Positions 1-54,911 of a stretch of 64,000 nt of DNA are shown here, piece after piece. The position numbers and the translations under genes were made by a program. Numbering within the stretch: position 1 is the stretch's first letter; each line of letters begins with the position of its first letter. Location: contig JAHILE010000048.1 of assembly GCA_018897155.1 (NCBI GenBank), positions 1,385 through 65,384 of the forward strand, written 5' to 3'. Origin of the DNA: Nanobdellota archaeon. GTDB lineage: Archaea > EX4484-52 > LFW-46. The notes beneath the pieces are model-generated. The model did not search any database. It saw only the letters and a list, made by a program, of their open reading frames with translations, and was not told the origin of the DNA.

Positions 1-1
1 A

Positions 2-3000
2 TTCAACCCAGGATGCACCCCGAAATATTCTATAGGGATACATGGCTGGAAGGGCGGGGTAACTGACGATTCCTGCTATGTAAACACAAACAGCTCAATA
101 TACAGCCTTAACATAACCACAGCCCCGCTAATTGCTGCAATAGAGCAGCCAAACGATGCAATGTTTAGAAGAGATATAGATAACATTACTTTGCGCGGCA
201 ATGTAACCGACGACTGCGGCCTTGTAAACGGCTCGACAACAAGCCTTTCGGCGTATAACGGCCAGAGCTACCAGAACTGTACTGCAGGAATGATAAATGA
301 CGAGGGCGCCGGCTGGTACAACTGCACGCTTACCCCGGTTTCTCCAGAATGGAGTGTCGGGCAATACGGCAAATACAATACAAGCATGTATGCCTCAAAG
401 CAGTATTACAACATATCAAATATCACAACAATGTCGCCGTCTTTCAACCTGACAGACCCTCCTGAAATAAAGGATATGACCTGGACATCAAGCAACCCGG
501 TAACAAGCGGATGGGGAACAAGGCACACATTCACTGTGAAAGTAAAGGACGATGAAGCAGGATATGATACAGACACGGTTTATTTATGGAAATGGCATAC
601 TTCAACAGGGTGGGCGCTTATAAATTCAACCACTGTAATAAACAACCCGCTGTTTACAACAGTTTCATTTGAACAAAGATTCACGTGCGCAGATATCGGG
701 ACAAATTATTACAAATTCAATGTCTCGGACAGATGGGGAAATACTAATGAAACGCAAAATGCAAGCTTTACAATAGGAAAAGATGCCGTATTTGTCCAAT
801 TAATACCTGCAAGCAATGTTGACCGAGAAGGCCCTGCAACAACAAACCTGAAAGTGCGCGTCAGAGACACTGACAACGACTCGGTTGCATTCAACTGGAT
901 ACCTGAAGGATATAGCGGCAAAATGTTTGTAACTACAAACGGCTCCGGAAGCAATGTATGGACTGTAGCAAACGGATCTATGTATACGGATTCCGGAAGC
1001 TATTTGAGTTTTGATTTCAATCCCGAATGCGCTCCGCTATATAAAGTCGGGGCCCAGGACTGGCGCGGAGGAATGGACAACGACACCTGTTTTGTAGACA
1101 CCAACTCATCATCCGGCACGTTCACCATAACCGGCCAGCTTAAAGAAGGCATTGATTTACCGCCTTACGGCTCCGTATACGCAGTAGGCACAAACGTGAC
1201 AATACGGACAAATTCAACAACAGACTGCAGCGAATTGGTGAATGACTCTGCAATCAGCATACAATTAAGCAGCCCGCTGTCCGTATGGGAAAACTGCTCG
1301 GCAACAATAAACAATGAAGGAAACGGATATTATAACTGCTCATGGAACACGGAATTCCACTATGGAGGCTACTATAATGTGCAGATGAATTCGAGCAGAA
1401 CTAATTATTATTTCAATACAACTACGTGGAATAGCCAATTCTATATGAACAACACGCCTCCAAATGTAGAAAACTTTTCAGTTTCCCCCGAATCCGAAGG
1501 CTGGGGGAGTGTATATACATACCGCGCAGAAATATATGACGCGCAAAAAGACAACATAACTTGCGCGTTATATGTAAACACATCAGAATCAACCGGGTGG
1601 GTGCTGAAAAATAGCACAACAATAGAAACTCAGCCAGCCCAAGGGCGTGCAAACTGCACGCTTTCAGTTTCAAACTTTGCTTGCGGCGAAATGGGAACAG
1701 ACAATAGCTACAAATTCCAGATATATGACGGAACAAACCTGCTGAACACAAGCGTAATCTCTGGCCCGAACCTGACAGAAGATTCTGTTTCGATATCTTA
1801 TTTCTACGGAAACAATTCTGTTGTGAATAGGTCCGGAACCGAAACAACGCGCTTCATTGTGAGCGCCCTAGATACTGATAGAGGAAGCATCCCGGTACTG
1901 ACTGGATCAAACATAAAATTCTGGGTAACTAAAAACGGTGCCGTATATGATGCGGGAACTGATATTGCGACCAATTCTTCGGGATATGCAAATTATGATT
2001 TCGACCCGACATGCAGCCCGACAAAATATGATGTGGGTCCGGAATATTGGGCTGCCGGCATTATTGACGGATGCTATGTTGCAACAAACCTGTCACAGAA
2101 TCTCACTACAACCGTAATTGGAAGCCTGATAAACACTATACAAATCCCGGATATCGGAACAGAATTCCTGCGAGGAGAAAACATCACGATAAAAAGCAAC
2201 TCTGTAGCTACTATACAAAGCGATTGCGTGCCCGAAGGCCTTGACGGCGTAAATAATGAAATAATTTTCCATAATGAAAACGGAATCAACAACTATTCCT
2301 GCGTAACCGGTCCCGGTACGGAAGGGTATTATGAATGCACAAGAAACACAACAGACATGAAAGCGAGATGGTACAACACAACAATGCGCTCATGGATGCA
2401 ATACTACCACAATGGAACGTCACTAAATGCAAGCCATTTCTTTGTCAAAACATTGCCTGTTCTAACAAACGAAACAGCAATCACAAATCCGGGCGGCTGG
2501 GGCGAAACATTCTATTTTAAAGTAAACCTTACTGATGAGGACCTTGATAATGTTACTGTAAACTTATATGCAAGAGATACTGCAGGCGGCTCATGGGGTG
2601 GGGCAAAAAACTCAACAATTATATCGGCCCCGATAAATCAAACTGTTGTAATTTACTGGAACACCGTGCCTTATTGCGCCATAGGAACGTGGGAATATTA
2701 TTTTGATGCAACAGACACGCACAACCCGTTAGATATAGTATCTACAACACCAAAGAATTTCACAATAGAACAAGACGATGTACAAATAGCTCTTGTGAGC
2801 GGCGACAATTCGTTCGCGTGGAGAAACGGCACATATAATACAACATTTACGCTCAATATAACCGACACTGACAGAAAAAACATAACAATAGGCGATAGCT
2901 CTTCGCGCTTCTGGGTGACTGTCAATGCAAGCAACCCAGGCTCTTTTGATGCCGGAAAAGACACAATGAGCTCCGGCGGATTAATAACATATTATTTCAT

Positions 3001-4090
3001 GCAGCAGCTGCCGGATGGCGGGCAAAAATGCGACTATTCTGTCGGAATTCAAAAATGGAAAGGCGGCACATTCAATGACGTCTGCTACAAAGATGCAAAT
3101 TCAACCGCGTATTCCGTAATTATAAACTCAAGCCTAATGCCGAACATAACAAACCTGCATGACCAGGGATATTTAAGAGGGGACAAGATTCCAATAAATG
3201 TATCTGTAATTGATGATTGCCAGACAGTCGAAAATGCAACAGTTATAAACAGCTTAGTAAATCCGCCAAACACATACTACTGCAGCAAACAAGATAACTG
3301 GGCATGGAACGAAAGCAACGGAACGTATATATGCATATGGGATTCGACAAACAAGCCGTATAAATGGTACAATGTCACGGCAACAGTTTCAAAGAATTAT
3401 TATGTGCAAAGCTCAACACCGGGCACAGACAGGTTCTTCTTAGGCACAACGCCGAAGCTGGATTTCCCTTCAGTAAACCCGACATTCGGCGGATGGGGTG
3501 AGAACCATCAATTCAGCGTGAGGCTGACAAGCCTTGACCTTGCAACAAACAATGTATCCCTCTGGAAAAGCCTTGACAACATTTCATGGAACGTTGTCAA
3601 CTGGCAGTTAGTAAATACACCGGTAAACCAGTGGGTCTACTTCAACGAAAGATTTACTTGCAATGACTACTTGACGCCGCCTTCGGGACGTAATTATTAC
3701 CAGATAAAATCCGCAAGCGTGTTCGGATTCAGCAACGAAACGCCAATACTTAATTTCACTCTCGACTATGACAATATAACCATACCAACATTAGGGGGGA
3801 ACGACAGTGTAAGGAGGCTTGGCACAACAACGGCATTCCTCCAAGCAAGAATCTATGACAGCGATTATGGAGTTTATCAAAATAATACTGCAGGAAATAT
3901 TTGGATAACGTCGGACGGAAATAATTTCAGCTCAAACCAGACGTGCACAACATCAAACGGATATTGCAATATAAATTACGATCCACAATGCGATATATCC
4001 ACAGGAGTGCAAAAATGGAAGCTGGCAGTTGAGGATGCATGCTATCAAAAAGTAAACTCCACAAATGCAACGCTGACTGTCATGGGCCAG
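2..4090 (+). repeat. Protein-level tandem super-repeat (~330 aa / ~990 nt, 4 copies plus a partial one) inside giant gene 1
   Basis: The Trp codons of the GWG motif lie at 512, 1502, 2498 and 3494 (spacing 990-996 nt). Each unit is a GWG..F.V..D Ig-like domain, a domain ending in C-x(16-19)-C (D..C..KY.VG..W.GG..D.CY, seen 5 times including the window edge), and a Cys-containing YNC.W domain. The DNA itself has diverged. Confidence 0.7.
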
Positions 4091-7000
4091 CTATATAGCA
4101 ACCACGTAAATCCGACAACAAATGCAATCATCAACAGAAACACCACAACGCCTTTGAATACCACAGTAATTAATGACTGCAACGGCGCAATTACCGGCGC
4201 CACAATATATTGGTACAATAGCACTCCAAAGCAGATTGCAATAGGATATAATACAACATGGAAGGTTCCTGTAACTTATGCAAAAGGACCTGAAACAATA
4301 ACAACAAACGCAACGCAACAGTACTATGACAACGGAACAAACTCAACACAAGTCTATATATATGGATGGAGTAAGATAAACTACACCAGCCTCTCAAACA
4401 GCTCAAGCTATCTTGCAGGTGAGTATGTTGAATCATATTGCATGGTAATAGATGCCAACACAACTGCATATCTTCAAAATTACAACGTAAGCTATTACAA
4501 AAACGGAAGTTTGCAGACCTCTGCAATGACAAATGAAAACGGAACTGCATTATGGAATTGGTCCACAGCATCTGAAAACTTCGGATGGTATAATATAACG
4601 TGTATAATTTCAAATGATAACGCCCAATACTATACGCCGTCAATTCCGCAAATTGAAAGCAATGTGAGAATAAACAGATCCACGGTTCTTAAGTCCCTAT
4701 CGCTTTCCAACTCATCAATATTCAGGAATGATTCCTATAACCCGTACAAAACAAACATATCAGTAACTATCTATGACGCAGTTATAGGGCCTGCAGACGG
4801 GGCAAACGTCACATTCTATAATTCAACCGAACTTATCGGCAATTGCACGACTAATCCGAGTGGCAACTGCTTCATAACATATAATGCGCCAGACAATTCA
4901 ACTCCGGGAATTTACATAATATATATAAACTCAACCAAGACAGGACTTGAGCCATCCATAACAAATCAGACCAACATCACTGTGACAGGAGTACTATTCA
5001 TAAACATAACACAGCCAGCAAACGATTCGTCGTGGGGTAAATCGACGACGCTCAATGTAACGTCCGATATATGGAATGAAAACGGCTATATTGATAACGC
5101 AACTGTAAATTGGTATATTGATACAAACTATGTTGCAAGCGGACAAAACGCGTCGTTTTCGCTATCGTCGCAAACGCCAGGAAGCAGAAAATTGACCGCG
5201 AATGCAACGAAATCATATTACCAACAGGCAGCGTCAAATATATCCCTAAGAATAAACGGTCTTGCTGACGTAAACTGGTGGTACCCGCCGGACAGCTCTC
5301 TGCAGCCATATCCGGTTCCATTTGAAATACAGTGCCGCGTAACAGACAACACGTCAGCAAGTGTCATTCAGGGATATGATGTCAATTTCTGGTACTGGAA
5401 CGGCTCAAGTTATATCTTCAACGGAACATATGCAACAGATAATTTCGGCATTGCAGGCACTACATGGTATCCGGATTCAAAAGGAAGCATAACCTTCATG
5501 TGCAACATAACTGAGAATACAACAATGTATTATTCGCCGAATATTAAAAGTGCAACTGCAACAATAATGGTGCAGGATACAAACCCGCCGTCAATAACGA
5601 ATACAAGCATACTGCCAAACCAGAGCATTGAAGCAAATCTCAACTCAACAGCAATAACTGCAAATGTTACTGACGATTTAAATGTTTCTTCAGTCATCGC
5701 AAGAATAGTTTTACCCAACAGCAGCGTAATAAACCGAACAATGGCAAATATATCACAAAACATATACACAGTCCAATACCTGCCGCCCATAGGAGGAAAT
5801 TATTCAGTGACAATAATGGCGTGGGATTCGCCGCCCGAAAGCAACTTAAATGCAACGTATGCGGGAAACTTTACTGTATGGGGAAAAATAAACATGACTT
5901 CTGTTCAAACCGATGAAGCAGTAATAAACGGCATAACGCAATCAAACGGGGCACAATTTGTAATTGAAGCCAATGCAACTAATCTCGGGCCTGCAAACGC
6001 GTATAATGTAACACTGACCATGTCTGATTCCCCGCCGGGCGTCTTATCCTACAACACCACGCAATACTCTTGCGGAAACCTCAGCACAGGCCAGAATTGC
6101 TCGCGCGCGTTCCTTGTAACTGTACCCCCGGCAACGCCGCCACAAATAATATATTCAAAAGTCACAACATCCTGGCGCAATCCGGATCTGACGCTTGAAA
6201 ATGTCGAAAATATAACAGACGTAATAATCTCGGCAAATCCAATAATTGATATATATGAGCCATCTCTCATAAACAACACTCCGCATGGAATGACAACCAA
6301 AGCAGGAACATTAACAATAATATCTGCAGGAAACTGGCCTGTTGACAACATAGCCATAAACACCGTGGGCGGAAATCTTGCAACATCATGCCCGGGATGC
6401 AACATCACAATAAGCCAGCCCCTATGGGGAACTCTTCCGGCAGGAAGCAATTTCACAACAGACATAACTGTTGTAGTGCCGTTTGGGCAGCCGCCCGGCA
6501 ACTACTGGACATCCGTGCTTGCATCATCAGATGCCGGCGTTGATTGGATAATCATGAACCTTACGGTTCCGCTCAACACTTCATGGACCAGAAATCCGGC
6601 GACATTCGGAACAATACTCGCACTGGTAAATTCAAGCGATTCAGTAGGCAATATAGTTGCAACGCATATAGGCAACCAAAAGATAGATTTCAAGCTATAT
6701 GAATCACAAAACGGAAGCGCGCTTGTTTCATTTGCTCCGCTGGCATTCACATTAAATGTCCTTTCATCAGTCAATATTTCGCTGAATTACACAATTCCGA
6801 TAAGCCAGACACCGGGCATGTATTACTATCAGCTTCTGATAAGAAACACATCGGCAAATCCGCCGGAATACATAACAGACATGTGGCTGAATGTAACCGA
6901 CACACCGCCGACAATATCAAATGTCATCATTAATCCGATGGGCTATGAGGCGGGCACAGAATACACAAACATAACCGCAAGAATAACAGACAATGTGGCT

Positions 7001-11467: not shown

Positions 11468-11485
11468 AGTAAAAAGGGCGATAAT

Positions 11486-11526
11486 ATCTTGAAAGCGTTT
11501 GCAAAAATGCGCTTTCAAGATTTTTA
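11486..11526 (+). terminator. Hairpin plus T5 terminator after giant gene 1
   Basis: Perfect 12-bp inverted repeat: ATCTTGAAAGCG (11486-11497) and CGCTTTCAAGAT (11510-11521). It is followed by TTTTT, 19 nt after the TAG stop. Confidence 0.6.
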
Positions 11527-11567
11527 GCCCAGATAGAATGGCAAAAAATTAATGGAGATGGCTAAAA

Positions 11568-14150
11568 ATGGCGGAAAAAAAGAGCAAAAAGACAAACGAA
11601 CTTGACGAGATGAGCCTCGACGAGCTGATAGAAAGATGCAAGCAGATAAAAGAGCTTCTTGCGAACCTTGAGAACCAGTACAGATCTGCGGAAATTACTG
11701 AACAAAGCTACAAGCAGACAAAGGACGCAAACACAAAAAAGCTCGGTGAAGTAAGAAAGCGCCTTGAAGACTGGGGAATTAAGGACGAAGATATTCCTGC
11801 GCCACTTTCCGCTGCGCAAAAGCCTGCCGCGAGCACTTCCGCCGCTCCAGCATCAGCACTTTCGCAGCCTCAAGCCTCCGCAACGCCAGCCGCTACAACA
11901 CTATCGTCAGCAGCCCAAAAACCCGCACCGGTTCCGCCGCCGGTACAAGCGCCGGTTTTTACTCCGCCGATAGAAACACAAGAAACAAACGAATCTGCCC
12001 AAGAAACGCCGGTTGCCCCGCCAGCACCGAGCACTCCAATATCATTCACGCAAAAACTGAAACAACAATTTATGCCGTCTTCCCAAAGGTCGCCGGAAGA
12101 TCCCGCATATATTTCGCAGACTGTGCAGCTTGAGCTCCAAAAATTCCAGGAAAAATTCAATGTGGATCTTGAGCGCATAAAGGCATCAATCGATGCTATT
12201 AAAGAGACACGCGCATCATCTGAAGAAAGAATACATATGCTGACTGAAGGAATTGCCGAACTCAGGTCAAACGTATTTCAGCGCGAGGCAAATTTAAAAG
12301 AGCAGGAAATGAAGCTTACTAAACTGAAGGAAATGGTTGATGACGTCGAGCCGCAAAAAATAAGCAAAGAATTCTCAAAACGCGACAAGACATCTTCGGA
12401 CATTGAAGTCCGGCTTGAAAAGCTGGAAGTAAAAACAAACGACCTCATAAAGACAGTTAATGAAATAAATGCTTTGCTCAAAAGCATTGGAGGGCTTGAA
12501 AATGTGGCAGATGTAAACCATGAAGTTACGAAAAAATTCGAAGAGATACGCGAAATAAACACCGCCACAGAAAGGCTGTCTTCAAAAGTCGAAAAGATAT
12601 TCATAGATATAAACAAGCGGCTTGAAAAATTCAACATATACGAAGCCAGGCAGGACAATATAAGCGAAATTGTCAACGACATGATACGAAACTTCGACGC
12701 ACTTTCGCTGAAGTTTGAATCCTATGCGGAAAAAAAGGATCTGACCACTACCAAAGAAGACATCACAGACATCCAAAAAAAAATGGAAGAGCTGAAAAAG
12801 ACGCTGAAAAGGGTAGTGCCATTTGCAGAGGCGCAAGTTCCGGAAGAAATCCAGGCGCTTCAGACTGAGCGGGAAGATATCGAATCGCTTCTTTCCTCAA
12901 TAGAATACGAACATGAAAAAAAGCAAATCACCGACGATGAATACGCATCAATAAGGGAAAAGAATGGCGTACGGCTCAAAGAAATAAAGCAGAAAATCGC
13001 AAACGCTGTGAAAAAAATCGCGCCTGCCGATGAAGAAAAGGATGCTGCGTCAAATACGAAAAATCAGAACCCATCATTGGTTGATGCGATGTCAAAAGAC
13101 ATGGACGCAATCAAAACTGCGGCAAAAAAGAATGCTGAAGAATCCAAAAAGAAAGATGAAGCTGCCAAAAAAGAAGCTGAAGAAGCAGCTGAAACCGAAA
13201 ATGAAAAAAATGTTGAAGAAACAACTGATGAAGAAAATGATGAGTCCGACAAAGAAAACGAAGCTGAAAGCCCTGACGCAAAAGAGAAAAAAGAAACGCA
13301 GGGAAAAAAGCATTCAAATGCAAAATCGGCTAATCCAAAAAGTTATGAAAATGCACCTGAAAAAACAGAGATAATTAATGAAGCGGGAAAAGAACCGCTG
13401 CCGGAAATAAAAAAAGAAATGATGGAACAAACAGTTGCAGAAGAAAATAAAGATGAAACGTTTGCGCAACATGTGCCCGTTCCCGCCGCCGATACAAAAC
13501 ATAAAGAAAAATGGCGCGCCAAATCCAAAAAGGCGAAACATAACAAACAGAAAATAGTTCGAAAGGCACGCGAAACAAAAGAGAAAAATGAACAAGTGGA
13601 GCGCGCAACGCGAATGTTTTTGCGCGCAAATGAAATTGAGCGTCCGAATGCTGTTCGCGCAAAAAAAGCAGCTTTAAAAAAGAAACTAAAGAAAAAAGTG
13701 GCGCCATCAAAACAAAACAAAATGCATGCAAAAAGACATGCACATCATGCAGCCAAATCTACCGCGAAAAAAACAATAGCATCTTCGCGTGCAGTGAGGC
13801 TCGAAAATCGCGCAATTGCAAAAGAGAAAATAAAAACAGCCACAAATAACGCAGCCCAAACATCAAGAAAATCTCTTCGCTCATCCCACGGCCTGTTTGT
13901 TCCTGCAAAAGAGATTACAGATATAAAAAGTGTTATATCAGCCGGCGCGCAGAATGCGCAAACGCCAAAAAAACAGGATATTTCGCCGCAGAAAAATGCC
14001 GAAGCTGCAAAAGAAATAGCAAACGCGCCGGCAAAAAAAGGCGAAAATGAAACAAATCCACTGCTTGCAGAACTCACTGAATCGCTGAAGCAAGGGCTTA
14101 TTTCAAAAGAGACTTACGAAAATACAAAGAAGCTGCTAATGATGGGTTAG
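11568..14150 (+). CDS. Cytoplasmic coiled-coil / low-complexity (K/E/A/P-rich) protein with SHOCT-like helical motifs
   Basis: 860-aa ORF with no hydrophobic segment. Ala/Pro-rich stretch, long heptad-like K/E region and a Lys-rich tail. C-terminus is LTESLKQGLISKETYENTKKLLMMG. GGAG lies 11 nt upstream of the ATG. The stop is 17 nt before the next gene. Confidence 0.7.
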   Translation: MAEKKSKKTNELDEMSLDELIERCKQIKELLANLENQYRSAEITEQSYKQTKDANTKKLGEVRKRLEDWGIKDEDIPAPLSAAQKPAASTSAAPASALSQPQASATPAATTLSSAAQKPAPVPPPVQAPVFTPPIETQETNESAQETPVAPPAPSTPISFTQKLKQQFMPSSQRSPEDPAYISQTVQLELQKFQEKFNVDLERIKASIDAIKETRASSEERIHMLTEGIAELRSNVFQREANLKEQEMKLTKLKEMVDDVEPQKISKEFSKRDKTSSDIEVRLEKLEVKTNDLIKTVNEINALLKSIGGLENVADVNHEVTKKFEEIREINTATERLSSKVEKIFIDINKRLEKFNIYEARQDNISEIVNDMIRNFDALSLKFESYAEKKDLTTTKEDITDIQKKMEELKKTLKRVVPFAEAQVPEEIQALQTEREDIESLLSSIEYEHEKKQITDDEYASIREKNGVRLKEIKQKIANAVKKIAPADEEKDAASNTKNQNPSLVDAMSKDMDAIKTAAKKNAEESKKKDEAAKKEAEEAAETENEKNVEETTDEENDESDKENEAESPDAKEKKETQGKKHSNAKSANPKSYENAPEKTEIINEAGKEPLPEIKKEMMEQTVAEENKDETFAQHVPVPAADTKHKEKWRAKSKKAKHNKQKIVRKARETKEKNEQVERATRMFLRANEIERPNAVRAKKAALKKKLKKKVAPSKQNKMHAKRHAHHAAKSTAKKTIASSRAVRLENRAIAKEKIKTATNNAAQTSRKSLRSSHGLFVPAKEITDIKSVISAGAQNAQTPKKQDISPQKNAEAAKEIANAPAKKGENETNPLLAELTESLKQGLISKETYENTKKLLMMG

Positions 14151-14167
14151 ATACAAGATACAATTCA

Positions 14168-17100
14168 ATGGGATTCAAAATGAAACAAAGAGTTATTTTG
14201 TTTGCAATGATTGCAGCGATAGCTCTGCTTTTATCACCTCTACTTGTCAATATTGCCAATGCGCCGACAGACCCTTACTGGTTCGATACGTCGTGGCATT
14301 TCAGGATTGCGCTGGCAATCAACAATACAGATTATGCGCGAGATAACTGGCCGATTGAACATGATATGAATTTCACCGCATTGATAACACAAACTGGAAA
14401 AAGCGGCACTTTCGATTACAATTCCATACGCATTTACGCGCATAACTCAACCGGCGGCGTAATGCACCCGATGAAATACCAGTTCGACAACGCGTCGGAC
14501 TCAAGTGCAGCATCAAATGCCGCAGGAACTCTTGTATTCCTCTTGAATGGCACAACAGCGGCAAATGAAATCCGGTATTTCTACGTTTATTTCGACACAA
14601 TTGAAAATGGCGCGAAAAGCCCGCCGTCATTTTCCACAAACCTCAACTATTCATGGGATGGCAAAGAAGCGCATGTGAATAACAGCATGCTGCGATGGAA
14701 AATAGATACGATGCGAAATGAAAATACTTCTGGATTATATGATGCAAAAGGAAACTCAGCAACCATATTTACGCAGGCAACTTCAAACAGAACAATCGAA
14801 TACATACAATATTCAAACGGAACAAATAATTTTTCTTTTGATTTTAGGAACAATGCGACGTTTATTTCAGGACCTATAATGCTGAGGCTCGAACAAGCCG
14901 GAAATGAAATGCTTTGGAACAACCCCGACGCAATAACTGGAGCCGGATGGATGAAAAAGACGTACGTATTTTATGAAAATACAAAATGGCTTAAGATAAT
15001 TCAAAACTTCACAAATATCGGCGGCTCTTCCATAACAAGAAACTCAACAAACGGAGGCGCGCTTTCCGTGAATGAACTCATAGACAACAGCTTACTACCG
15101 CCTTTTGGAAACGAAAGCAATCCGATGTCCAGATACGGCGCTTCTGACGGCAGCAGAGGTGTCGGAATAATAAATGTGAATTCCAGCAGCAACGCGAATT
15201 ACTCCGCAGTTTACGATGCGGCTCTTGACAGGATAGGGATTAATCTTAACAGCACAACACTGGCTCCGCAGGAATCCATAATACAAACAACAGTAATGCA
15301 ATTCGATGATGTCCAGTACAGCGATGACCAAAACCTTCTTCCGTTAAGAAACCAGCTGCTTTACCCTCCAATAATTACGCAAGACAATCCGCAATACATA
15401 ACATTTATGCTGGAATCAAAAACAAACTACACCATCCACAACAGAAACGAAAGCGTGCTGATTACTGGAAATACTACATTCGATCCGTACAACATCAGTT
15501 CATCAATGAATGCCACTCTTGATATGGGAACGGCGGATTCTGCGGACGATATAACAATAGTTTTGTATGACGACGGAAGTGCTGAACATGGCGATGCAAC
15601 TGCATCAGACACTATATTCTCCAACTACTTCAACTTATCCGAGGATAGCGTATTTGGAACATGGAATATCACCATAAACGCGTATGATATTTCAGACATT
15701 CTTCTGAACCAAAGCATCACAGCATTCAATGTAACAAATGAATACAGTACAAGCATAAATATAAGCAATCCTGACGGGTTTGTCGACCGCATAATAAACA
15801 CTACACTAAATGTGAAAAATAAAAGATACGACACGTTTATTCCGGGCGCAACGCTTAACTGCAGCTACAGCGGCTCCGGCGAGCTGACAAATATAACAGA
15901 CTACGGCAATGGCACATACCTCTTGAATTTTACAGCCCCTTCAATAACCGGCTCATATCTTCTTAATTGCAGCGCGATAAAATTCAACAACACTGGATGG
16001 GCCGCCCAATGGTTCTATACTGAAACCAGCGAGACAATGCTATTACTGAACATAACTCCGGAAAACCACACAACAAGCAATATAACGCGAGCAACAGGCA
16101 ATTCATTTATAATTAATCTTAATGCCACAGACATTGGAGGCGCAAATGCAAAATATACGAATATGACTCTTTCGCTGCCTCAAAACATCACTGCAAATGC
16201 AACAAACGCAAGCTGCGGAACTGTAATAATGGGAACCTCTTGCCTGAGGGATTTCAATATAACAATAGCCAACGGAACCTCGCCCGGAAACTATACACTA
16301 AATACAAGCGTGGTGTGGGAGAACCCGGACACTTCAAAAAATACAACAAATTCATCAGTTACCATATACGTCTTATCAAATCCTCAAATTAATATAACTC
16401 CAGCAAATATTTCCGGTAACGCTCCTGACGGGAAAACGGTTACCATAGGAACATTTACGGTATGGTCTATAGGAAATGACAACATCACAAACACTACGTT
16501 TAATGTGACCGGAATTCCGGACTTTTCAGTGTCTTTCAGCCCGCAAAACATATCCGGCCTTGCAGCCGGAAGCTCACAGCCGGTTTCAGTAAACGTGACT
16601 GTTCCATCAGATTATGCGCCGGGAAACTATACTGGAACAATAAATGCCAGCACAATAAACGATGGATGGAAAACAATAGAGCTTAATGTAGCCGTGCCTT
16701 CAACAACAAACCTATCGATAAACATAACGCCTCAAAACTACACATCCCGAAACATATCTTATTCAAACAGCGAATCATTCAACATAACTATCAATACTAG
16801 TAACACGGGCGTAACCGGCGCAAAAGACGTAAACATAAGCCTATCGCTTCCGCAAAATCTCAGCGCAAATTCGACAATTGAAAACTGCGGCAACATCAGC
16901 ACAAATTCATTCTGCATAAATCAATTCAACATAACAATAAGCAATCAAACAGCTCCGGGAAATTATACATTCAACATAACGGCAACATGGAAAAATCCCG
17001 ATTTGTCGATAAATTCAACAACCACCAATATGACCGTTGCTGTGCTATCCAATCCACTATTAAATGTTTCAGAAGGCGGCATATCAACAATACTCTTTGA

Positions 17101-20100
17101 CAATACGACAGCATATGCGGGCAATTTCACAACATACTCGCTTGGAAATGACAACCTGACAAACATCACGTTCAATGTTACCGGACTCTCGAACTTTACA
17201 TTCACCTTTTTGCCGGCAAACATCTCAACTTTAGGAGTAAACAGCTCACAGCTTGTCTCTGTAAATGTTTCTGTTCCGTTCGCATATTCTCCAGGTAACT
17301 ATACCGGAACAATAAATATGAGTTCGATTAATGACGGCTGGAAGGTTATTGAAATAAATGTAAGTGTCCTTATAAGACGCGAATGGAGCATTTCTCCGAC
17401 ACATTGCGAAAGGGCGGAAAATCCCGACACCGGAACAGTATGCTCTGTAGCCGTATCCAACACAGGAAACGCACCCATAAACTTTACTGTCAATCCTTCC
17501 GGAATAAATTATACTTCGGCAAATGAAACCAATTTCACAGTGGCTAAGAATTCAACACACTCGCTCGTATTTCTTTATAATGTCTCAAACATCACAAAGG
17601 ATTTTTTCTATTCCTTTTATACCATTAACGCCACAGACGCGGATGCATCTCCGCAGTATAGCAACTTCAACATAACCTTAATACCCTATGTTATACCGTT
17701 GTTTTCAGTGAACGTCCTGCCGAACGAAACCGAGCAGAGAAAAAATGTCGAGATAATGGTAAATGTTACCGACCGCTCCACAACCGGAATAAACTGGACT
17801 CAAATGAATATAACGCTTCCAAACGGCACGCTTGAAACGCATAACCTGACGCGTATAGACGTAAACGGAACTTTCAGCCAATGGTATTTTAATTATTCAG
17901 GAATTATGAATATCTCCAATCTGACAAACATGAGCGGCAATTTATCAAACATCACATTAAATTACACGGGAAGCACAGCATTGCGCGGCACCTATAATAT
18001 ATCCATCACATCACAGGATAATACTGGAGTTGCTGGAGATGTAAATGGAAGCTTCAAAATACATGCAAAAATGCTTATTGGATTCCTTCCGGGATCAACA
18101 AAATATTATCAGGGCTCAACAGGTTCTCTTTATTATGCTGCAACTGATTCTGAGGATAATGCGCTTAGCGGAGCAAATGTAACTATAAAGATAAAAGACT
18201 CTTCAGGAAACTTGACTTATCTCCAAACATTCTCAACAGGATCAAGCGGACAAATACTTCCAACCCCGACATTCCTTTTGCCAAATGATGCTAAAGTCGG
18301 GCAATACAACATTTCTGCATACACAACATATTATGATGCGATTGCAGACAAAATATTAAATGCAACTAACAATGCATCATTCAGCCTGCAATCCGGTTCA
18401 TCTGGCGGTGGAGGCGGACTTGCCGCATATGTGGACACTGCTGTTGTCTGGTACCCTGACAATGTGATGCGCTTTGAAATGTGGTTCTCATATGCAGGAA
18501 ATGTGACTGATCCAGACAATATGACTTTGTTTGTGTATGATCCTGCGAGCAACCTGTATTTTAACATAAGCCTTACAAACGCAAACAGATCATCCGCAGG
18601 ATTGTATAATTACAGGTATGCTATGCCGATTAATACTGCTTCAGGATATTACTTCGCCATCCTCACAGCATCAAAAGAAGGCTTTGTAAGCCAGATGGTA
18701 AAGCCTTTCAGAGTTGCAAAAGGCGGCCCCTATGACGTAAAGCTGACAGTATTGCCGCCTCTTGAAGTGTCGCGGCAAGACTACCTTAGCTTTGAAGTGC
18801 TTGTGGAAAACATGGGAGAAGTCACGCAGGACGTTTATATCGATTATTGGACGTCCTATGAAAACAATACATATTATTATAGTGGAGAAGCCATACTGAC
18901 GCCCGTGGGCGTGAATATAACAATAATAAGAACGGCATACATCTTTTCCAATCAGCCTCTTGGGATGAACACGCTAAACTTAAAAGTGACATACGACAGC
19001 GTACAGGCACCGATACTTTTGAGCGCCAATTTTGAAGTAGTTGATGATTATATAAACATACCTCCTCCTCCGCCACAACCGCCTCCGCCAGACTATGACT
19101 ATGAAAGTGGAGGGGGTGGTGGGGGAGTTATTGAAAGAATAATTTATTTGCCGCCTGAAGAACTTCCGGAAACCGATGCGGCTGGAATTGGCAAAAGATC
19201 AAGCATAGAAATAGAGAGCTATAACAAAGAAATAAACATAGTGCGAGGATGGACATCGCTTGAAAGCGTAAAAGTGAAAAATACAGGCAACACAACACTG
19301 AAAAACATAACGCTTTTGTTATCCGGAATACCTTCTTCATGGTTCAAAATAACTCCAAAATATTATGAAAGCCTAACTTCCGGAAACAGCACAATATTTT
19401 TGATAGAATTCAAAATACCAAATAATGCCGAGTCTGGAACATACAACATCGTTTTCACAGCATCATCTATTGAAAGAACAACTGAAAAAGTCGGCCGCCT
19501 GATAATTTTCACATCGATTGAAGAACTCGTAAATCAAGAGATTATAAACCTTAAAATAGATGTAGAAAAGCTTGAGGAAGACACAGACTATTCCGAACGG
19601 CTTGGAAGAAATATTTCGCAAATCCGGGATATTATAGCATCTGCGCGAGCCCAAATAAAACTAGCTGAAGACAATGCAAAAAAGAAGGTATTTGATGACG
19701 CGCTCCTTAACACGCAAACAGCGTCAGGCCTGATAAAGCGCGGAAAACGCCTGCTTGAGTCCCTTGTAACCGAAGAGCCATCAGTCTCGCAGAAACCAAC
19801 ACGAAATGTCTGGCTTATGGGGCTTGAAGCGCTTTTAATAATTATTTTAATAGCTGCAATAGCGCTATGGACGATACGGTCGCGCGGGAAGCTCAAATGG
19901 GAAAACATAAAGGCATACCTCAAGAAGAAAACCGAAAAGAGCGCGACAAATGAAGAATTGAAGAAAGAGCTTGTTGCAGAAAAGGAAAAAATAGCCCGAA
20001 TGACAAAACTCCTTGAAAGCGAGCTTAAAGAAGGCATAATAACGCAGAACGCATATAATGAGCTGAAGAAGAGAAATGATGAAAAGCGAGCTAAGATAGA

Positions 20101-20122
20101 GCAGCAAATCAAAAAGATTTAA
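14168..20122 (+). CDS. Giant (1,984 aa) surface protein: signal/anchor helix, sequon-saturated Ig/CARDB(NEW3)-like repeats, Pro/Gly hinge, C-terminal TM helix, coiled-coil cytoplasmic tail
   Basis: N-terminus MKQRVILFAMIAAIALLLSPLLVNIANA. I hand-counted about 23 N-x-S/T in one ~215-aa module. Hinge PPPPPQPPPPDYDYESGGGGGG (19061-19126). TM helix VWLMGLEALLIIILIAAIALWTI (~19807-19875). The tail ends LKEGIITQNAYNELKKRNDEKRAKIEQQIKKI. Confidence 0.85.
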   Translation: MGFKMKQRVILFAMIAAIALLLSPLLVNIANAPTDPYWFDTSWHFRIALAINNTDYARDNWPIEHDMNFTALITQTGKSGTFDYNSIRIYAHNSTGGVMHPMKYQFDNASDSSAASNAAGTLVFLLNGTTAANEIRYFYVYFDTIENGAKSPPSFSTNLNYSWDGKEAHVNNSMLRWKIDTMRNENTSGLYDAKGNSATIFTQATSNRTIEYIQYSNGTNNFSFDFRNNATFISGPIMLRLEQAGNEMLWNNPDAITGAGWMKKTYVFYENTKWLKIIQNFTNIGGSSITRNSTNGGALSVNELIDNSLLPPFGNESNPMSRYGASDGSRGVGIINVNSSSNANYSAVYDAALDRIGINLNSTTLAPQESIIQTTVMQFDDVQYSDDQNLLPLRNQLLYPPIITQDNPQYITFMLESKTNYTIHNRNESVLITGNTTFDPYNISSSMNATLDMGTADSADDITIVLYDDGSAEHGDATASDTIFSNYFNLSEDSVFGTWNITINAYDISDILLNQSITAFNVTNEYSTSINISNPDGFVDRIINTTLNVKNKRYDTFIPGATLNCSYSGSGELTNITDYGNGTYLLNFTAPSITGSYLLNCSAIKFNNTGWAAQWFYTETSETMLLLNITPENHTTSNITRATGNSFIINLNATDIGGANAKYTNMTLSLPQNITANATNASCGTVIMGTSCLRDFNITIANGTSPGNYTLNTSVVWENPDTSKNTTNSSVTIYVLSNPQINITPANISGNAPDGKTVTIGTFTVWSIGNDNITNTTFNVTGIPDFSVSFSPQNISGLAAGSSQPVSVNVTVPSDYAPGNYTGTINASTINDGWKTIELNVAVPSTTNLSINITPQNYTSRNISYSNSESFNITINTSNTGVTGAKDVNISLSLPQNLSANSTIENCGNISTNSFCINQFNITISNQTAPGNYTFNITATWKNPDLSINSTTTNMTVAVLSNPLLNVSEGGISTILFDNTTAYAGNFTTYSLGNDNLTNITFNVTGLSNFTFTFLPANISTLGVNSSQLVSVNVSVPFAYSPGNYTGTINMSSINDGWKVIEINVSVLIRREWSISPTHCERAENPDTGTVCSVAVSNTGNAPINFTVNPSGINYTSANETNFTVAKNSTHSLVFLYNVSNITKDFFYSFYTINATDADASPQYSNFNITLIPYVIPLFSVNVLPNETEQRKNVEIMVNVTDRSTTGINWTQMNITLPNGTLETHNLTRIDVNGTFSQWYFNYSGIMNISNLTNMSGNLSNITLNYTGSTALRGTYNISITSQDNTGVAGDVNGSFKIHAKMLIGFLPGSTKYYQGSTGSLYYAATDSEDNALSGANVTIKIKDSSGNLTYLQTFSTGSSGQILPTPTFLLPNDAKVGQYNISAYTTYYDAIADKILNATNNASFSLQSGSSGGGGGLAAYVDTAVVWYPDNVMRFEMWFSYAGNVTDPDNMTLFVYDPASNLYFNISLTNANRSSAGLYNYRYAMPINTASGYYFAILTASKEGFVSQMVKPFRVAKGGPYDVKLTVLPPLEVSRQDYLSFEVLVENMGEVTQDVYIDYWTSYENNTYYYSGEAILTPVGVNITIIRTAYIFSNQPLGMNTLNLKVTYDSVQAPILLSANFEVVDDYINIPPPPPQPPPPDYDYESGGGGGGVIERIIYLPPEELPETDAAGIGKRSSIEIESYNKEINIVRGWTSLESVKVKNTGNTTLKNITLLLSGIPSSWFKITPKYYESLTSGNSTIFLIEFKIPNNAESGTYNIVFTASSIERTTEKVGRLIIFTSIEELVNQEIINLKIDVEKLEEDTDYSERLGRNISQIRDIIASARAQIKLAEDNAKKKVFDDALLNTQTASGLIKRGKRLLESLVTEEPSVSQKPTRNVWLMGLEALLIIILIAAIALWTIRSRGKLKWENIKAYLKKKTEKSATNEELKKELVAEKEKIARMTKLLESELKEGIITQNAYNELKKRNDEKRAKIEQQIKKI
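16046..17389 (+). repeat. Tandem duplication of a ~224-aa (672-nt) double-domain module in giant gene 2
   Basis: Copy 1 starts LNITPENHTTSNITRATGNSF (16046) and copy 2 starts INITPQNYTSRNISYSNSESF (16718). Both end ...PGNYTGTIN.S.INDGWK.IE.NV.V. A related single module lies in giant gene 1 at ~5890-6560 (...PPGNYWTSVLASSDAGVDWIIMNLTVP). Confidence 0.75.
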
Positions 20123-20149: not shown

Positions 20150-20455
20150 TTATTTGCTCAAAATTCTCTTCTTTTCAAAAACAATCGCTATAAATACAAG
20201 GCCCATAAACGCAGTTATCACAAGAATGCTTGCGGTATAGCTGACAATATCATTTATTATGTGATATGCACTTCCTTCTTTTGTGGTGCATGTCGTTTCA
20301 CCGCCCTGCATAAAAAAAGAGTACTTTATTTCCGCCGCACCTCCGAAACTTTCGCAGATTTCCGCATGTATCGATTCGTGAAAGTATGTCTGTATTGAAT
20401 TTACAAAAAGAAACATAATTATGAGAACAATTATGTCGAAAATATAGTGCTTCAT
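20150..20455 (-). CDS. Small two-TM membrane protein with HExxH motif (possible minimal zincin-like peptidase)
   Basis: 101 aa. Hydrophobic N- and C-terminal helices flank YFHESIHAEICESFGG. ATG start. Convergent with giant gene 2. Confidence 0.4.
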   Translation of the reverse strand: MKHYIFDIIVLIIMFLFVNSIQTYFHESIHAEICESFGGAAEIKYSFFMQGGETTCTTKEGSAYHIINDIVSYTASILVITAFMGLVFIAIVFEKKRILSK

Positions 20456-20513: not shown

Positions 20514-21083
20514 TCAAGACTTTCTTCTAATGCTTACAACGGTTTTTCCGTTCTGAACCCCTTCATTTTTAACAATAAGCGAATAGGTTCCTGGAGATAG
20601 CTTATAATCTCCTGTCAAATTTATTCCTTTTTCGAAATATTCAAGTCCAACAGCCACCATATTTTTTTTAATAAAGGGAAATGCAAATGAAGGGATCACA
20701 TATGTTTCAAAAACGCCGGACAAAACATCAGGCATTCTATCAGAGATTGTTCCAACATTGCCTTTTGTGAAAACAAAATACGCATTATTGTAATCCAAAT
20801 CTTCGCTGATTGTCATTGAAGTCGCTGTAGAATCAACATTGTAAAAAATGCCGCCGCGGCTTACTACCGCAATTACTGTGGAATTTGCAAAATTCGATGC
20901 ACCATATCTGCCTGATGTGCTTGTGACCGGCGCAAGTGTTGGAGATTCCACAGACACTTCAACCGAATGGCCCGAAGATGCATACGAAACATATGCCAGG
21001 GATGCAAATAATACAACTATACTCAAAGAGAGTAAAATGCAATTACTGCGTTCTTTGAAAAAAGCAGACATTTTACATAGCAT
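20514..21083 (-). CDS. Secreted/anchored hypothetical protein
   Basis: 189 aa. N-terminal hydrophobic helix ILLSLSIVVLFASLAYVSYA, then beta-rich sequence. Alternative ATG at 21071. Confidence 0.5.
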   Translation of the reverse strand: MLCKMSAFFKERSNCILLSLSIVVLFASLAYVSYASSGHSVEVSVESPTLAPVTSTSGRYGASNFANSTVIAVVSRGGIFYNVDSTATSMTISEDLDYNNAYFVFTKGNVGTISDRMPDVLSGVFETYVIPSFAFPFIKKNMVAVGLEYFEKGINLTGDYKLSPGTYSLIVKNEGVQNGKTVVSIRRKS

Positions 21084-37313: not shown

Positions 37314-37336
37314 ACTTTCGAGAAAACACTCTAATT

Positions 37337-38041: not shown

Positions 38042-38044
38042 ACA

Positions 38045-38108
38045 TCAATACAAAAACATCTCATCCGCAACGCGCCCGTAAATCTCGCCGGCGCAGTTTC
38101 CCAAAAAC
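38045..38108 (-). repeat. Diverged duplicate of the gatD 3' end (last ~20 codons plus stop); direct repeat of 39109-39172
   Basis: 38047-38065 is identical to 39111-39129 (19/19). A ~14-nt diverged core follows. After that, about 27 of 29 positions are identical up to 38108/39172. The minus strand reads ..FLGNCAGEIYGRVADEMFLY-TGA, against the gatD end ..FLANCAGEISERIVDEMFLY-TAA. Confidence 0.85.
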
Positions 38109-38149
38109 TGCCCGGAACCTTTTTATACTTTGACCACCAGTAATCATGT

Positions 38150-43966: not shown

Positions 43967-44035
43967 AACAAATAGTATGTGAGGATGGTGCGCGAACTAC
44001 AAACACACACAAGTTTTCTATAGAGTGTGAAACAT

Positions 44036-52308: not shown

Positions 52309-52366
52309 TAATCGCGAAGCTCGAAGCTTTTTTGTTTTGCAATGCATAAAACATATGCAAAACAAA

Positions 52367-52440: not shown

Positions 52441-52444
52441 ATAG

Positions 52445-54819: not shown

Positions 54820-54911
54820 GCAGTTACTTTTTATTTTCAGCTTTATATAGGTTAAACAACATAGTATATTATAATCGTTAATGTCGTAGTAATCACTTAA
54901 AGTGAGCAAAT

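Follow-up and report, generated by a model that had tools for sequence, protein, structure and literature searches.

A SPEARE-type giant surface protein, its linked coiled-coil gene and a second giant at one locus of a DPANN archaeon

Three co-oriented open reading frames (ORFs), herein referred to as G1, CC and G2, fill the first 20 kb of the window (the whole 64,000-nucleotide stretch of archaeal DNA that was analyzed) and raise the question of what system they encode. The closest genome, LFW-46, represents a reduced, host-dependent DPANN lineage sister to Nanohaloarchaeota (the encompassing EX4484-52 lineage is labeled Aenigmarchaeota by sources), and the present archaeon is probably host-dependent as well. 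Here, we identify the cluster, carried by a DPANN archaeon of the EX4484-52 lineage, as a SPEARE-type surface module. SPEARE is a named family of giant DPANN surface proteins (Hamm et al. 2019, PMC6642349; Reva et al. 2023, PMC10266531) that still lacks a solved mechanism. Host-cell contact is the role presumed for the family; the function of the present locus, exchange with a host cell included, we infer.

Layout of the locus

2..11467, + strand: G1, SPEARE-type giant protein of at least 3,821 aa, frame open from base 2
14..4390, + strand: Cys-containing, beta-rich supermodule of ~330 aa, repeated in tandem at least 4.4 times, G1 aa 5-1463 (self-profile search)
5933..8242, + strand: NEW3-type Ig-like repeat block, G1 aa 1978-2747, paralogous to G2 aa 623-1301
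9449..9535, + strand: Gly/Ser hinge, G1 aa 3150-3178 (read directly in the sequence)
9578..10192, + strand: two membrane-proximal NEW3-like Ig domains, G1 aa 3193-3397 (G2-module profile)
10244..10321, + strand: sole predicted TM helix of G1, aa 3415-3440 (Kyte-Doolittle scan)
10409..11236, + strand: predicted HerA-clade P-loop ATPase core, G1 aa ~3470-3745 (Pfam DUF87, AF2, Foldseek)
11252..11455, + strand: three-helix C-terminal tip, G1 aa ~3751-3818 (AF2 helices)
11486..11522, + strand: hairpin of 13 bp followed by U5, in the G1-CC spacer
11568..14150, + strand: CC, predicted cytoplasmic coiled-coil protein of 860 aa (ORF; no TM helix)
12123..13037, + strand: conserved core of CC, aa 186-490 (family-wide invariant residues)
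14168..20122, + strand: G2, 1,984 aa (ORF, Pfam, hydrophobicity scan)
19199..20119, + strand: conserved membrane-proximal module of G2 (end-to-end alignment with a 344-aa mini protein)

A prior interpretation made from the letters alone (the sequence-only reading) had described three same-strand ORFs, and the ORF list bears out their sizes and the 17 nt between the CC stop and the G2 start; all details of that observation that could be checked proved right. G1 runs without a stop for at least 3,821 aa, its true N-terminus lying outside the window, and is separated from CC by a 100-nt spacer whose hairpin (-26.9 kcal/mol, z = -6.2; 0 of 200 shuffles fold equally well) is possibly an attenuator or RNA-processing site. 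At the same site in locus L005, a different 11-bp inverted repeat is visible by eye. The cluster sits among housekeeping genes in a conserved context; the window also carries a defence island of its own at 34-39 kb, outside which the G1 gene lies.

The first giant and the SPEARE family

G1 is predicted to adopt a type-I topology, with a glycosylated ectodomain, one TM helix and a cytoplasmic HerA-clade ATPase. The visible ectodomain begins with the supermodule array (copies at aa 5-341, 343-670, 671-999, 1011-1328 and 1333-1463), which matches no Pfam family and is all-beta in a low-confidence AF2 model; this distal array is presumably ligand-binding. The repeat block that follows shares 27% identity with its G2 counterpart (blastp E 9e-22 and 3e-16), and Pfam NEW3 (PF10633) is detected in both giants (7e-10 in G1, with a NEW3 stretch at aa 2420-2489, and 1.6e-33 in G2), in agreement with the CARDB/NEW3 assignment first proposed from the letters. 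Beyond the hinge, a profile of the G2 proximal module matches G1 at aa 3193-3320 (iE 3e-26) and aa 3316-3397 (iE 2e-9), a NEW3 pair that is kept in all relatives, 722-aa mini forms included. The AF2 model keeps the TM segment helical to about aa 3455. Protease, laminin-G or toxin-like domains were not detectable with Pfam in the visible G1 ectodomain.

The predicted topology can be compared with the distribution of N-x-S/T sequons, of which G1 carries 205 (72.9 +/- 7.2 expected from composition-preserving shuffles), G2 127 (42.8 +/- 5.4 expected) and CC 3 (6.1 expected). The sequons of both giants thus reach about three times the composition-matched expectation, far beyond chance, and are restricted to the ectodomains (204 in the ectodomain and one in the tail of G1; 127 and none in G2), a partition that fits the out/in topology. 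Both the saturation with sequons and the shared membrane-proximal plan of hinge, NEW3 Ig domain(s), one TM helix and tail had been claimed by the sequence-only reading, and both hold.

Its further assignment of an ATPase to the G1 tail is likewise upheld: Pfam DUF87/HerA matches above cutoff (6.8e-10; 39.8 bits vs 23.2), a phmmer search of the PDB recovers HerA (4d2i) at 1.6e-7 and, for an AF2 model with a pLDDT of 91.7, the best Foldseek match is Sulfolobus HerA (4d2i, E 6e-14). Foldseek PDB matches 1-35 are all HerA rings, the conjugative coupling protein TcpA following at rank 36 (E 1.6e-9). Walker A (aa 3503-3509), Walker B (VLVVYDEMH, aa 3630-3638) and an Arg motif (REFRKWG, aa 3658-3664) are invariant across 41 homologues, and with all motifs present the ATPase is predicted to be catalytically intact. 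REFRKWG aligns with REGRKFGVG of Sulfolobus HerA, a segment that we take to hold the trans-acting arginine finger; a finger of this kind would speak for assembly as a ring. The AF2 model places the TM helix of G1 in the position that the N-terminal domain occupies in canonical HerA, and at the other end the tail closes in three tip helices (H352-377, H383-397 and H401-419 in the tail model).

On sequence grounds G1 is a clear member of the SPEARE family. Its last 635 aa share 34% identity (E 3e-107) with SPEARE of Ca. Nha. antarcticus, the alignment is collinear through both NEW3 domains, the TM helix, the ATPase and the helical tip (which aligns to the extreme C-terminus of SPEARE), and the protein sets retrieved with the one tail and with the other as query overlap. 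The earlier statement that no characterized system of this composition could be named is therefore superseded, SPEARE being a named family whose Nha. antarcticus member has been detected by proteomics (Hamm et al. 2019, PMC6642349). Named members are NAR1_1133 of Ca. Nanohaloarchaeum antarcticus (PMC6642349) and SVXNc_0300 and BNXNv_0298 (PMC10266531); nanohaloarchaeal genomes carry several copies, with four in SG9 (PMC6642349). Relatives of the intracellular part were already noted in Aenigm-, Woese- and Micrarchaeota and Altiarchaeales, together with a 717-aa version (Hamm et al. 2019, PMC6642349), and the C-terminal tip has been called a "coiled-coil domain" (Reva et al. 2023, PMC10266531). 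We find the ATPase family to be very widespread in DPANN.

A linked coiled-coil gene and a second giant

A hydrophobicity scan finds no TM helix in CC, and no Pfam family matches it. Its core carries family-wide invariant residues (E202, E227, E231, R233 and P262) and the motifs DERIxxLxExIGELRS and EPxKIxKE, and a core profile retrieves 725 clusters at E<=1e-10, and only 909 matches in total, among 1.84 billion representatives. This small number of matches, together with the invariant charged residues and proline, indicates a specific family and not a generic coiled coil.

A CC homologue lies directly 3' of the ATPase gene in all 74 metagenomic loci, which are phylogenetically non-independent and come in many cases from one sample series, and the same holds for 16 of 17 further loci found via the ATPase. 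The arrangement recurs in loci labeled Nanohaloarchaea (L012, L014), Micrarchaeota (L010), Nanoarchaeota (L011) and Altiarchaeales (L019), as well as in a locus with no taxon label (L015), and in the reverse direction both of the independently found CC homologues that were looked up adjoin an ATPase gene. By gene linkage, CC is an obligatory partner of the ATPase. This linkage, the linkage of the G2-type gene and the miniature trio described below receive no mention in the SPEARE literature searched.

G2 comprises a signal-like helix (aa 7-33), a putatively glycosylated ectodomain of NEW3 repeats and MG2, a Pro/Gly hinge (about aa 1631-1653) and a conserved module made up of NEW3 (aa ~1678-1790), an extracellular helical segment of ~90 aa (1791-1878), the second hydrophobic helix as TM (1879-1907) and a 77-aa coiled tail (1908-1984). 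The module aligns with the whole of a 344-aa mini protein (hmm 10-323, iE 3e-124 after iteration; 7.5e-14 in first-pass blastp). A G2-type gene is next in order after CC in 38 of 44 metagenomic loci, with orthologues in the same position also in L001 and L006 and mini forms of 340-344 aa in L002, L009 and L017; it was not found in the nanohaloarchaeal loci sampled. Indeed, the entire trio also exists in miniature, at 722, 527 and 344 aa. On visual inspection, a helical motif stands out in CC as well as in the tail of G2; given this motif and the obligatory linkage, it is plausible that CC scaffolds the tails of both giants. The conserved synteny that the sequence-only reading had called for is thus present, and in a reduced DPANN lineage, which favors its proposal of a dedicated envelope-spanning surface apparatus.

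Possible function and comparison with known systems

We lean, with reserve, toward a SPEARE-type surface module in which a membrane-anchored ring translocase is fused to adhesin stalks. Every solved HerA/FtsK relative is, to our knowledge, a ring translocase, and the G1 ATPase would likewise assemble as a ring, probably a hexamer, held against the inner membrane face by its TM helices and displaying several stalks. In each stalk a flexible Gly hinge would carry >3,400 aa of Ig-like and beta-rich modules, heavily N-glycosylated. Where the stalks hold the host cell, the ring would use ATP hydrolysis to thread DNA or unfolded protein, as a polymer, through itself and so across the membrane of the symbiont. 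CC may dock on the ATPase tip and the G2 coiled tail as stator, scaffold or regulator, and G2, which has the proximal NEW3 in common with G1, could be a lineage-specific, co-assembling second stalk or membrane subunit. A role in surface interaction is suggested by the faster divergence of the ectodomain (58% identity with L005, vs 85% for the tail), by a size that spans about 300 aa to >7,800 aa on a constant core, by the several copies per nanohaloarchaeal genome and by the proteomic detection of SPEARE. Host contact is not an obligatory role, however, since the family also occurs in MAGs labeled Altiarchaeales, a group not known to be episymbiotic, and includes small forms whose ectodomain measures about 300 aa.

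A single TM helix per subunit would give DNA or protein only a narrow passage and counts against transport, known coupling proteins and FtsK having more helices or partner channels, and the locus conserves no substrate, channel-forming polytopic protein, nuclease or pilin. It is accordingly possible, if rather doubtful, that the giants form a glycoprotein coat or adhesin that ATPase and CC anchor, position, tension or recycle from inside, for example as stalks clustered at a contact patch, with no macromolecule crossing the membrane. The NEW3/MG2 Ig-like modules are typical of adhesins, and in 12 loci the gene after the trio encodes a positioning ATPase of the MinD/ParA type. Against this, neither the catalytic motifs nor the Arg motif change even at very deep divergence, the solved relatives are all ring translocases, and a purely structural anchor could do without a HerA core kept at 40-85% identity while the ectodomain varies.

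The MinD/ParA genes would also fit a role in positioning or division, and we regard as unlikely a DPANN analogue of FtsK/SpoIIIE, that is, a membrane-anchored HerA-type pump clearing or segregating chromosomes at division, with CC as a cytoskeletal or CdvA-like adaptor and MinD providing position. The superfamily of the ATPase, its wide distribution in DPANN and the housekeeping neighborhood are consistent with such a pump, as is a match of the CC N-terminus to the CdvA coiled-coil domain (E 6e-6), but that match is below threshold (26.7 bits, cutoff 30) and is seen again in just 2 of 40 members of the family. Giant, hypervariable, glycosylated ectodomains do not fit a division pump, nor do multiple paralogues (the four of SG9, tandem copies in L012) or the missing FtsK gamma and polytopic N-terminal domains.

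A membrane-anchored antiviral defence system of the Sir2-HerA or DUF4297-HerA type is very improbable: such complexes are among the Foldseek and PDB matches, but the PADLOC HerA matches (best 53 bits) are weak, partial and superfamily-level, no locus encodes an effector partner (Sir2, DUF4297 or a nuclease), and the gene's conserved housekeeping context lies apart from the defence island. Finally, although frame breaks or N-runs split the fusion gene in L001 and L014, the giants are not assembly artefacts or decaying pseudogenes: the window ORFs are unbroken over 11.4 kb (G1) and 6 kb (G2), an independent assembly (L005) has a collinear orthologue of 3,755 aa that is intact, no stop interrupts the fusion ORF anywhere in the flank in 32 of 34 metagenomic loci with a full 10-kb upstream flank, and sequon bias tracks predicted topology.

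Among known systems, the G1 ATPase shares its superfamily with FtsK/SpoIIIE and the archaeal DNA-import ATPase Ced, ring-shaped DNA pumps associated with the membrane, and the NCBIfam CedD model matches the G1 P-loop segment (E 4e-9), but over only about 60 residues and at 35.7 bits against a cutoff of 600; G1 lacks a polytopic N-terminal or gamma domain, and its neighborhood contains neither pilin genes nor a channel gene of the CedA type. The SPEARE ATPase has been assigned to type IV secretion (T4SS) ATPases (Reva et al. 2023, PMC10266531). VirD4/TrwB/TcpA and VirB4 do belong to the same ASCE/FtsK-HerA superfamily, and G1 resembles coupling proteins in that a membrane anchor precedes the ring ATPase on its N-terminal side. 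However, TraC and TraD models reach only E 0.003-0.007, far under their cutoffs, VirB4 is absent among the top 50 structural matches of the tail, G1 has no VirB4 N-terminal domain, and VirB2, VirB6 or VirB8-type genes are missing from the locus; membership in a T4SS is therefore not supported for this HerA-clade enzyme.

HerA of the HerA-NurA DNA end-resection system (4d2i), a hexameric ring translocase, is the best match to the ATPase core in both structure and sequence and shares Walker A, Walker B and the R-x-x-R-K-[FW]-G motif. G1 differs in being membrane-anchored, with a TM helix on the N-terminal side and a fused ectodomain, in lacking a NurA partner at the locus and in scoring 18-36 bits with NCBIfam HerA equivalogs (cutoffs 800-970). 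The window copy comes from a sister lineage of the published SPEARE, its visible ectodomain lacks detectable protease, laminin-G and toxin-like domains, and its locus holds G2 where the nanohaloarchaeal loci sampled have a second ATPase paralogue. G1 nonetheless has the SPEARE plan of giant adhesin-like ectodomain, NEW3 domains, one TM helix, P-loop ATPase and helical tip; the Nha. antarcticus protein has a poly-Gly run at the position of the G1 hinge, and the CC gene is present in both the window and the nanohaloarchaeal loci.

Architecture of the giant-protein locus and its genomic setting

The first 20 kb of the window, read directly from the sequence, hold three ORFs on one strand, as a sequence-only reading of this DNA had described, and two small convergent genes close the operon.

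2..11467: G1, a SPEARE-type giant with an ATPase tail, 3,821 aa, frame open from the first base
11568..14150: CC, a coiled-coil protein of 860 aa
14168..20122: G2, a second giant of 1,984 aa, beginning 17 nt past the CC stop
20150-20455, minus strand: 101-aa protein with two transmembrane (TM) helices, no Pfam match
20514-21083, minus strand: 189-aa secreted beta-rich protein with a C-terminal NEW3-like motif (YSLIVKNEG), no Pfam match

Because its frame is open from the first base, the N-terminus of G1 lies outside the window and its length is at least 3,821 aa. By hydropathy, this span contains a single hydrophobic helix, at aa 3415-3440; G2 contains two (aa 7-33 and aa 1879-1907) and CC none. 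The lack of such a helix in CC and the signal-like character of the N-terminal helix of G2 had both been proposed from the sequence and both hold. So does the claim that the giants are saturated with N-x-S/T sequons: G1 carries 205 (72.9 +/- 7.2 in composition-preserving shuffles) and G2 127 (42.8 +/- 5.4), with only 3 in CC (6.1 in shuffles). Their placement agrees with the predicted topology of both proteins: all 127 of the G2 sequons fall outside the cell, as do 204 of those in G1, leaving 1 inside. Pfam recognizes the Ig-like domain NEW3 (PF10633) in G1 and G2, MG2 in G2, and DUF87/HerA in the G1 tail; the NEW3 match of G1 scores 7e-10, and a profile adds many further NEW3-like repeats.

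The ectodomain of G1 is built of successive repeat blocks. The distal end (aa 5-1463) consists of 4.4 or more Cys-containing supermodules in tandem, ~330 aa apiece, followed by two repeats of ~280 aa each, a NEW3-repeat block of ~770 aa common to G2 at 27% identity, and a unique Cys-rich region that precedes the hinge. AlphaFold2 (AF2) prediction of a single 330-aa supermodule, with the five paralogous repeats as alignment, gave an unusable model (pLDDT 47). The closest related locus, L005, encodes an intact, collinear orthologue of 3,755 aa, to which the G1 ectodomain is 58% identical versus 85% for the tail; the ectodomain is the faster-evolving part. Among the 34 metagenomic loci having a full 10-kb upstream flank, the fusion ORF stays open across all of it in 32; closed forms in metagenomic loci range from 670 to 2,054 aa.

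The 100-nt spacer between G1 and CC contains a perfect 13-bp hairpin (11486-11522; -26.9 kcal/mol, z = -6.2) followed by UUUUU, which may govern the balance between G1 and CC/G2 transcripts; our terminator scan missed it because the loop exceeds 8 nt. L005 has a different 11-bp inverted repeat at the same position, overlapping the stop codon. A sigma-70 promoter scan returned the count expected from shuffles, and the sigma-70 model is not applicable to archaea.

L005 comes from MAG LFW-46, a reduced, host-dependent DPANN archaeon of p__EX4484-52 that is sister to Nanohaloarchaeota, with a GC content of 43.8% (PMC8561730); other close matches are labelled Aenigmarchaeota. Beyond this locus the window carries archaeal housekeeping genes, namely those for A-type ATPase subunit D, TBP, GatE/GatD, aEF-2 and a tRNA-intron endonuclease, and a small defence island. 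Further features are listed here.

26871-29033, plus strand: secreted protein, 720 aa, with a signal peptide, a Thr-rich linker and a helical C-terminal half
34353-38737, plus strand: defence island, comprising an Eco57I/MmeI-like type IIG restriction-modification fusion (986 aa), a TIR-domain protein (234 aa) and a Pol-beta-type nucleotidyltransferase (195 aa)
44027-44803, plus strand: NAD-dependent epimerase
within 51532-52517, minus strand: tRNA-Phe and tRNA-Asn, 2 nt apart
53644-54987, minus strand: DUF1512 protein

The 720-aa protein matches no Pfam family significantly and carries roughly twelve 24-aa helical repeats in tandem (consensus ~YKxGELTRDDLxWLxxxA). As listed, with a GTG start at 52389, the endonuclease ORF overlaps tRNA-Phe by 24 nt, and its real start is therefore probably further in. 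DUF1512 and epimerase genes also lie within a few kb of the compact trio in two related loci (L002 and L009), which suggests that this neighbourhood is old and loosely conserved.

SPEARE membership and the nature of the ATPase

SPEAREs were described from nanohaloarchaea as giant proteins reaching 8,553 aa, mostly extracytoplasmic, with a TM helix near the C-terminus and a conserved intracellular region (Hamm et al. 2019, PMC6642349). The authors consider that region the most conserved part of the family and report it also from Woesearchaeota, Aenigmarchaeota, Micrarchaeota and Altiarchaeales, and they note a version of only 717 aa; the type member is labelled a NEW3 domain protein in IMG (their Table S3), and proteomic detection is confined to Nha. 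antarcticus (PMC6642349). Later work re-annotated the intracellular part, assigning it to a VirB4/TraG-like ATPase that ends in a coiled coil, and proposed a T4SS-like "straw" (Reva et al. 2023, PMC10266531).

G1 resembles these proteins in its general plan, being a very long ORF with adhesion-type NEW3 domains, lying mostly outside the cytoplasm, with one TM helix close to the C-terminus and a cytoplasmic C-terminal region, encoded by a DPANN archaeon (as indicated by the archaeal housekeeping flanks and the MAG of L005). Our nanohaloarchaeal comparison comprised the type sequence printed for Nha. antarcticus (SI Fig. S18 of Hamm et al. 2019, PMC6642349) and metagenomic loci labelled Nanohaloarchaea (L012-L014). 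In blastp, the last 635 aa of G1 align with the type sequence at 34% identity (E 3e-107), collinear to the final residue and spanning both NEW3-like domains, the TM helix, the ATPase and the helical tip. Both proteins have a poly-Gly hinge in the same place, and searches seeded with either tail retrieve overlapping sets of proteins. The tail homology, the overlapping search sets and the shared hinge together show that G1 is a SPEARE-family member and place the locus firmly in that family. Neither Pfam nor NCBIfam finds a serine protease, laminin-G or "restriction endonuclease" domain in the visible 3,821 aa of G1, which lack the N-terminus; we do not treat this feature as defining, since Reva et al. 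(2023, PMC10266531) also dispute these assignments in the type proteins.

In the AF2 model of the G1 tail (pLDDT 91.7, 41-sequence alignment), the TM helix continues as a long helix, after which come a RecA-like core and, at the C-terminus, a tip of three helices. Foldseek against the PDB returned HerA rings as its top 35 matches, with Sulfolobus HerA (4d2i, E 6e-14) in first place; TcpA, a coupling protein, appeared at rank 36 and no VirB4 among the top 50. Walker A (aa 3503-3509), Walker B (aa 3630-3638) and the motif REFRKWG (aa 3658-3664) are invariant among 41 homologues, and the last of these aligns to the segment REGRKFGVG of Sulfolobus HerA, which holds the trans arginine finger. Given this agreement of predicted structure, motifs and sequence searches, the G1 enzyme is a HerA-clade ATPase with catalytically intact motifs.

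It shares with canonical HerA the RecA-like core bearing Walker A, Walker B and the arginine-finger motif; it differs in the TM helix and long helix that precede the core, so that in the AF2 model a membrane anchor occupies the place of the N-terminal HAS-barrel domain. It is not a canonical HerA, since it has no HAS-barrel, its gene neighbourhood contains no NurA, and the NCBIfam HerA equivalogs score it at 18-36 bits against cutoffs of 800-970. Assignment to T4SS VirB4/VirD4 likewise failed, for want of a Pfam match to the VirB4 N-terminal domain (PF03135) or to TraG/VirD4. TraC and TraD models reach E 0.003-0.007 (~15 bits against cutoffs above 360), VirB2, VirB6 and VirB8-like genes are absent from the flanks of the G1 locus, and, in further difference from T4SS, the first structural neighbours are HerA proteins. 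NCBIfam also gave no Ced membership. These sequence and model comparisons thus do not support the published VirB4/TraG assignment, and point to HerA ring translocases as the closest relatives.

The coiled-coil partner, the second giant and the compact trio

The sequence-only reading had tied its idea of a dedicated apparatus to conserved synteny in related genomes, and the ATPase-CC pair has it. A CC homologue lies immediately downstream in 16 of the 17 loci retrieved via the ATPase (L001-L015, L019 and L020), including loci labelled Nanohaloarchaea (L012/13, with a 7,878-aa SPEARE, and L014), Micrarchaeota (L010), Nanoarchaeota (L011) and Altiarchaeales (L019), and the unlabelled L015. Scanning genome contigs with a single protein yielded 4 loci and scanning metagenomes with an alignment a further 80, of which all 74 with at least 1.2 kb of downstream DNA have CC directly downstream; the loci counted are not phylogenetically independent. 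In the reverse direction, both CC homologues looked up from an independent search adjoin a SPEARE-type ATPase. The ATPase-CC linkage is obligatory.

CC matches no Pfam family. The CC core retrieved only 3 proteins in a word-indexed search, so that an exhaustive profile search was needed; among 1.84 billion representatives it matched 909 clusters at E<=1e-3, 725 at E<=1e-10 and 290 at E<=1e-30. This small number of clusters and a set of invariant residues (E202, E227, E231, R233 and P262) mark CC as a specific family rather than a generic coiled coil. A motif noted by eye at the ends of CC and in the G2 tail (I-[ST]-x-x-x-Y...K) resembles SHOCT or CdvA, but both score below their Pfam cutoffs, and we make no family claim: SHOCT (PF09851) reaches E 0.06 (13.5 bits against 27), and the CdvA coiled coil (PF18822), with E 6e-6 (26.7 bits against 30), recurs in just 2 of 40 members of the family. 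A metagenome protein of 769 aa (P0223) is 100% identical to CC over its length and has a later called start, which places the source genome, or one nearly identical to it, among public metagenome data.

Of the 44 loci that extend far enough, 38 have a G2-type gene after CC, in some cases with one to four small genes inserted. Its membrane-proximal module consists of NEW3, extracellular helices, a TM helix and a short coiled tail; the NEW3 domain is paralogous to the first of the two in G1 (iE 3e-26), and the whole module aligns end to end with a 340-344-aa protein found in loci where all three genes are small (722, 527 and 344 aa in L002). No G2-type gene was found in the sampled nanohaloarchaeal, Micrarchaeota and Nanoarchaeota loci. 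Some of these loci bear a second ATPase paralogue instead, consistent with a neighbour gene reported by Reva et al. (PMC10266531). In L012 (1-11878; labelled Nanohaloarchaea) a giant SPEARE is followed by a 625-aa mini fusion ATPase paralogue and then CC, and in L015 (1451-11254; no taxon label) by a 417-aa paralogue lacking the TM helix and then CC; these paralogues probably correspond to the "second VirB4-like ATPase" beside SVXNc_0300 (Reva et al., PMC10266531).

In 12 related loci, the gene next after the G2-type gene encodes a MinD/ParA-type ATPase with the motif GKGGVGKT (including L002 9308-10066, L009 14798-15553, L023, L024, L035, L060, L087, L092, L095, L097 and L100). The window has no such gene after G2; the ATPase may be a facultative fourth component with a role in positioning the machine. 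A protein of ~160 aa with three TM helices, a candidate membrane subunit, lies between CC and G2 in several loci (L059 13902-14393; L063 and L067 13937-14428; L053 9853-10323; L066 9026-9547) and is absent from the window.

Proposed mechanism and relation to known systems

We regard family membership, the topology signals, the intact catalytic motifs and the obligatory ATPase-CC linkage as established here. Our overall reading, which we judge to have slightly better than an even chance of being correct, is of a ring translocase with adhesin stalks: G1 ATPases would assemble into a ring at the inner face of the membrane, several stalks would extend from it outside the cell, ATP would power the movement of DNA or protein where a host is contacted, and CC would bridge the ATPase tip and the G2 tail, serving as stator or scaffold. 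It is weakened by the lack of a conserved channel or substrate gene in the locus, by the presence of only one TM helix per subunit, by the occurrence of the family in MAGs labelled Altiarchaeales and in small forms, and by the non-independence of the loci.

A non-transporting adhesin or coat, which the ATPase would only anchor or position, dispenses with a channel and a substrate and has to accommodate the invariant catalytic motifs; we consider it unlikely, though the likeliest of the rivals. An FtsK-like division pump would also employ a membrane-anchored ring motor, here joined to sequon-rich ectodomains of thousands of residues, and seems to us improbable. HerA-type defence shares the ATPase clade; membership of Sir2-HerA or DUF4297-HerA failed (best PADLOC match 53 bits, partial), no locus examined has an effector gene beside the ATPase, and we give this explanation very little credence. 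An artefact, set against the intact orthologue in L005 and the fusion ORFs that stay open in metagenomic loci, has a negligible probability.

The giant ATPase fusion thus joins a known, named family, with Aenigmarchaeota relatives already noted by Hamm et al. (PMC6642349). In the literature searched (DPANN with HerA, DUF87, VirB4 with giant, HerA-like) we found no description of a coiled-coil partner of the SPEARE ATPase, and no mention of a second giant with a shared proximal module, of a miniature trio or of HerA-closest evidence against the VirB4/TraG assignment; Makarova et al. 2014 do not describe this system. For the question of how DPANN archaea attach to host cells and trade material with them, SPEAREs are the leading candidates. 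The SPEARE gene does not stand alone. A specific, unannotated coiled-coil protein, whose family comprises at least 725 clusters at 50% identity, always accompanies it, and in the lineage of G1 so does a second giant with a common membrane-proximal module. These components and the HerA affinity make the system more tractable, and the compact trios, unlike the giants of 4,000-9,000 aa, are realistic targets for expression, cryo-EM and interaction assays.

The ring-translocase reading can be extended to a bolder proposal, possible and in our view rather doubtful, in which SPEARE and CC, with optional G2 and MinD, form the core of a hitherto unrecognised envelope machine that occurs across DPANN: a hexameric HerA-type motor, covalently joined to adhesin stalks of its own and served by a dedicated coiled-coil stator, would move DNA or proteins between symbiont and host, and the mini form (~720, 530 and 340 aa) would be the ancestral core. 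If this were true, the SPEARE machine would be a secretion or uptake system whose kinship with T4SS, T7SS and Ced goes no further than the ATPase superfamily.
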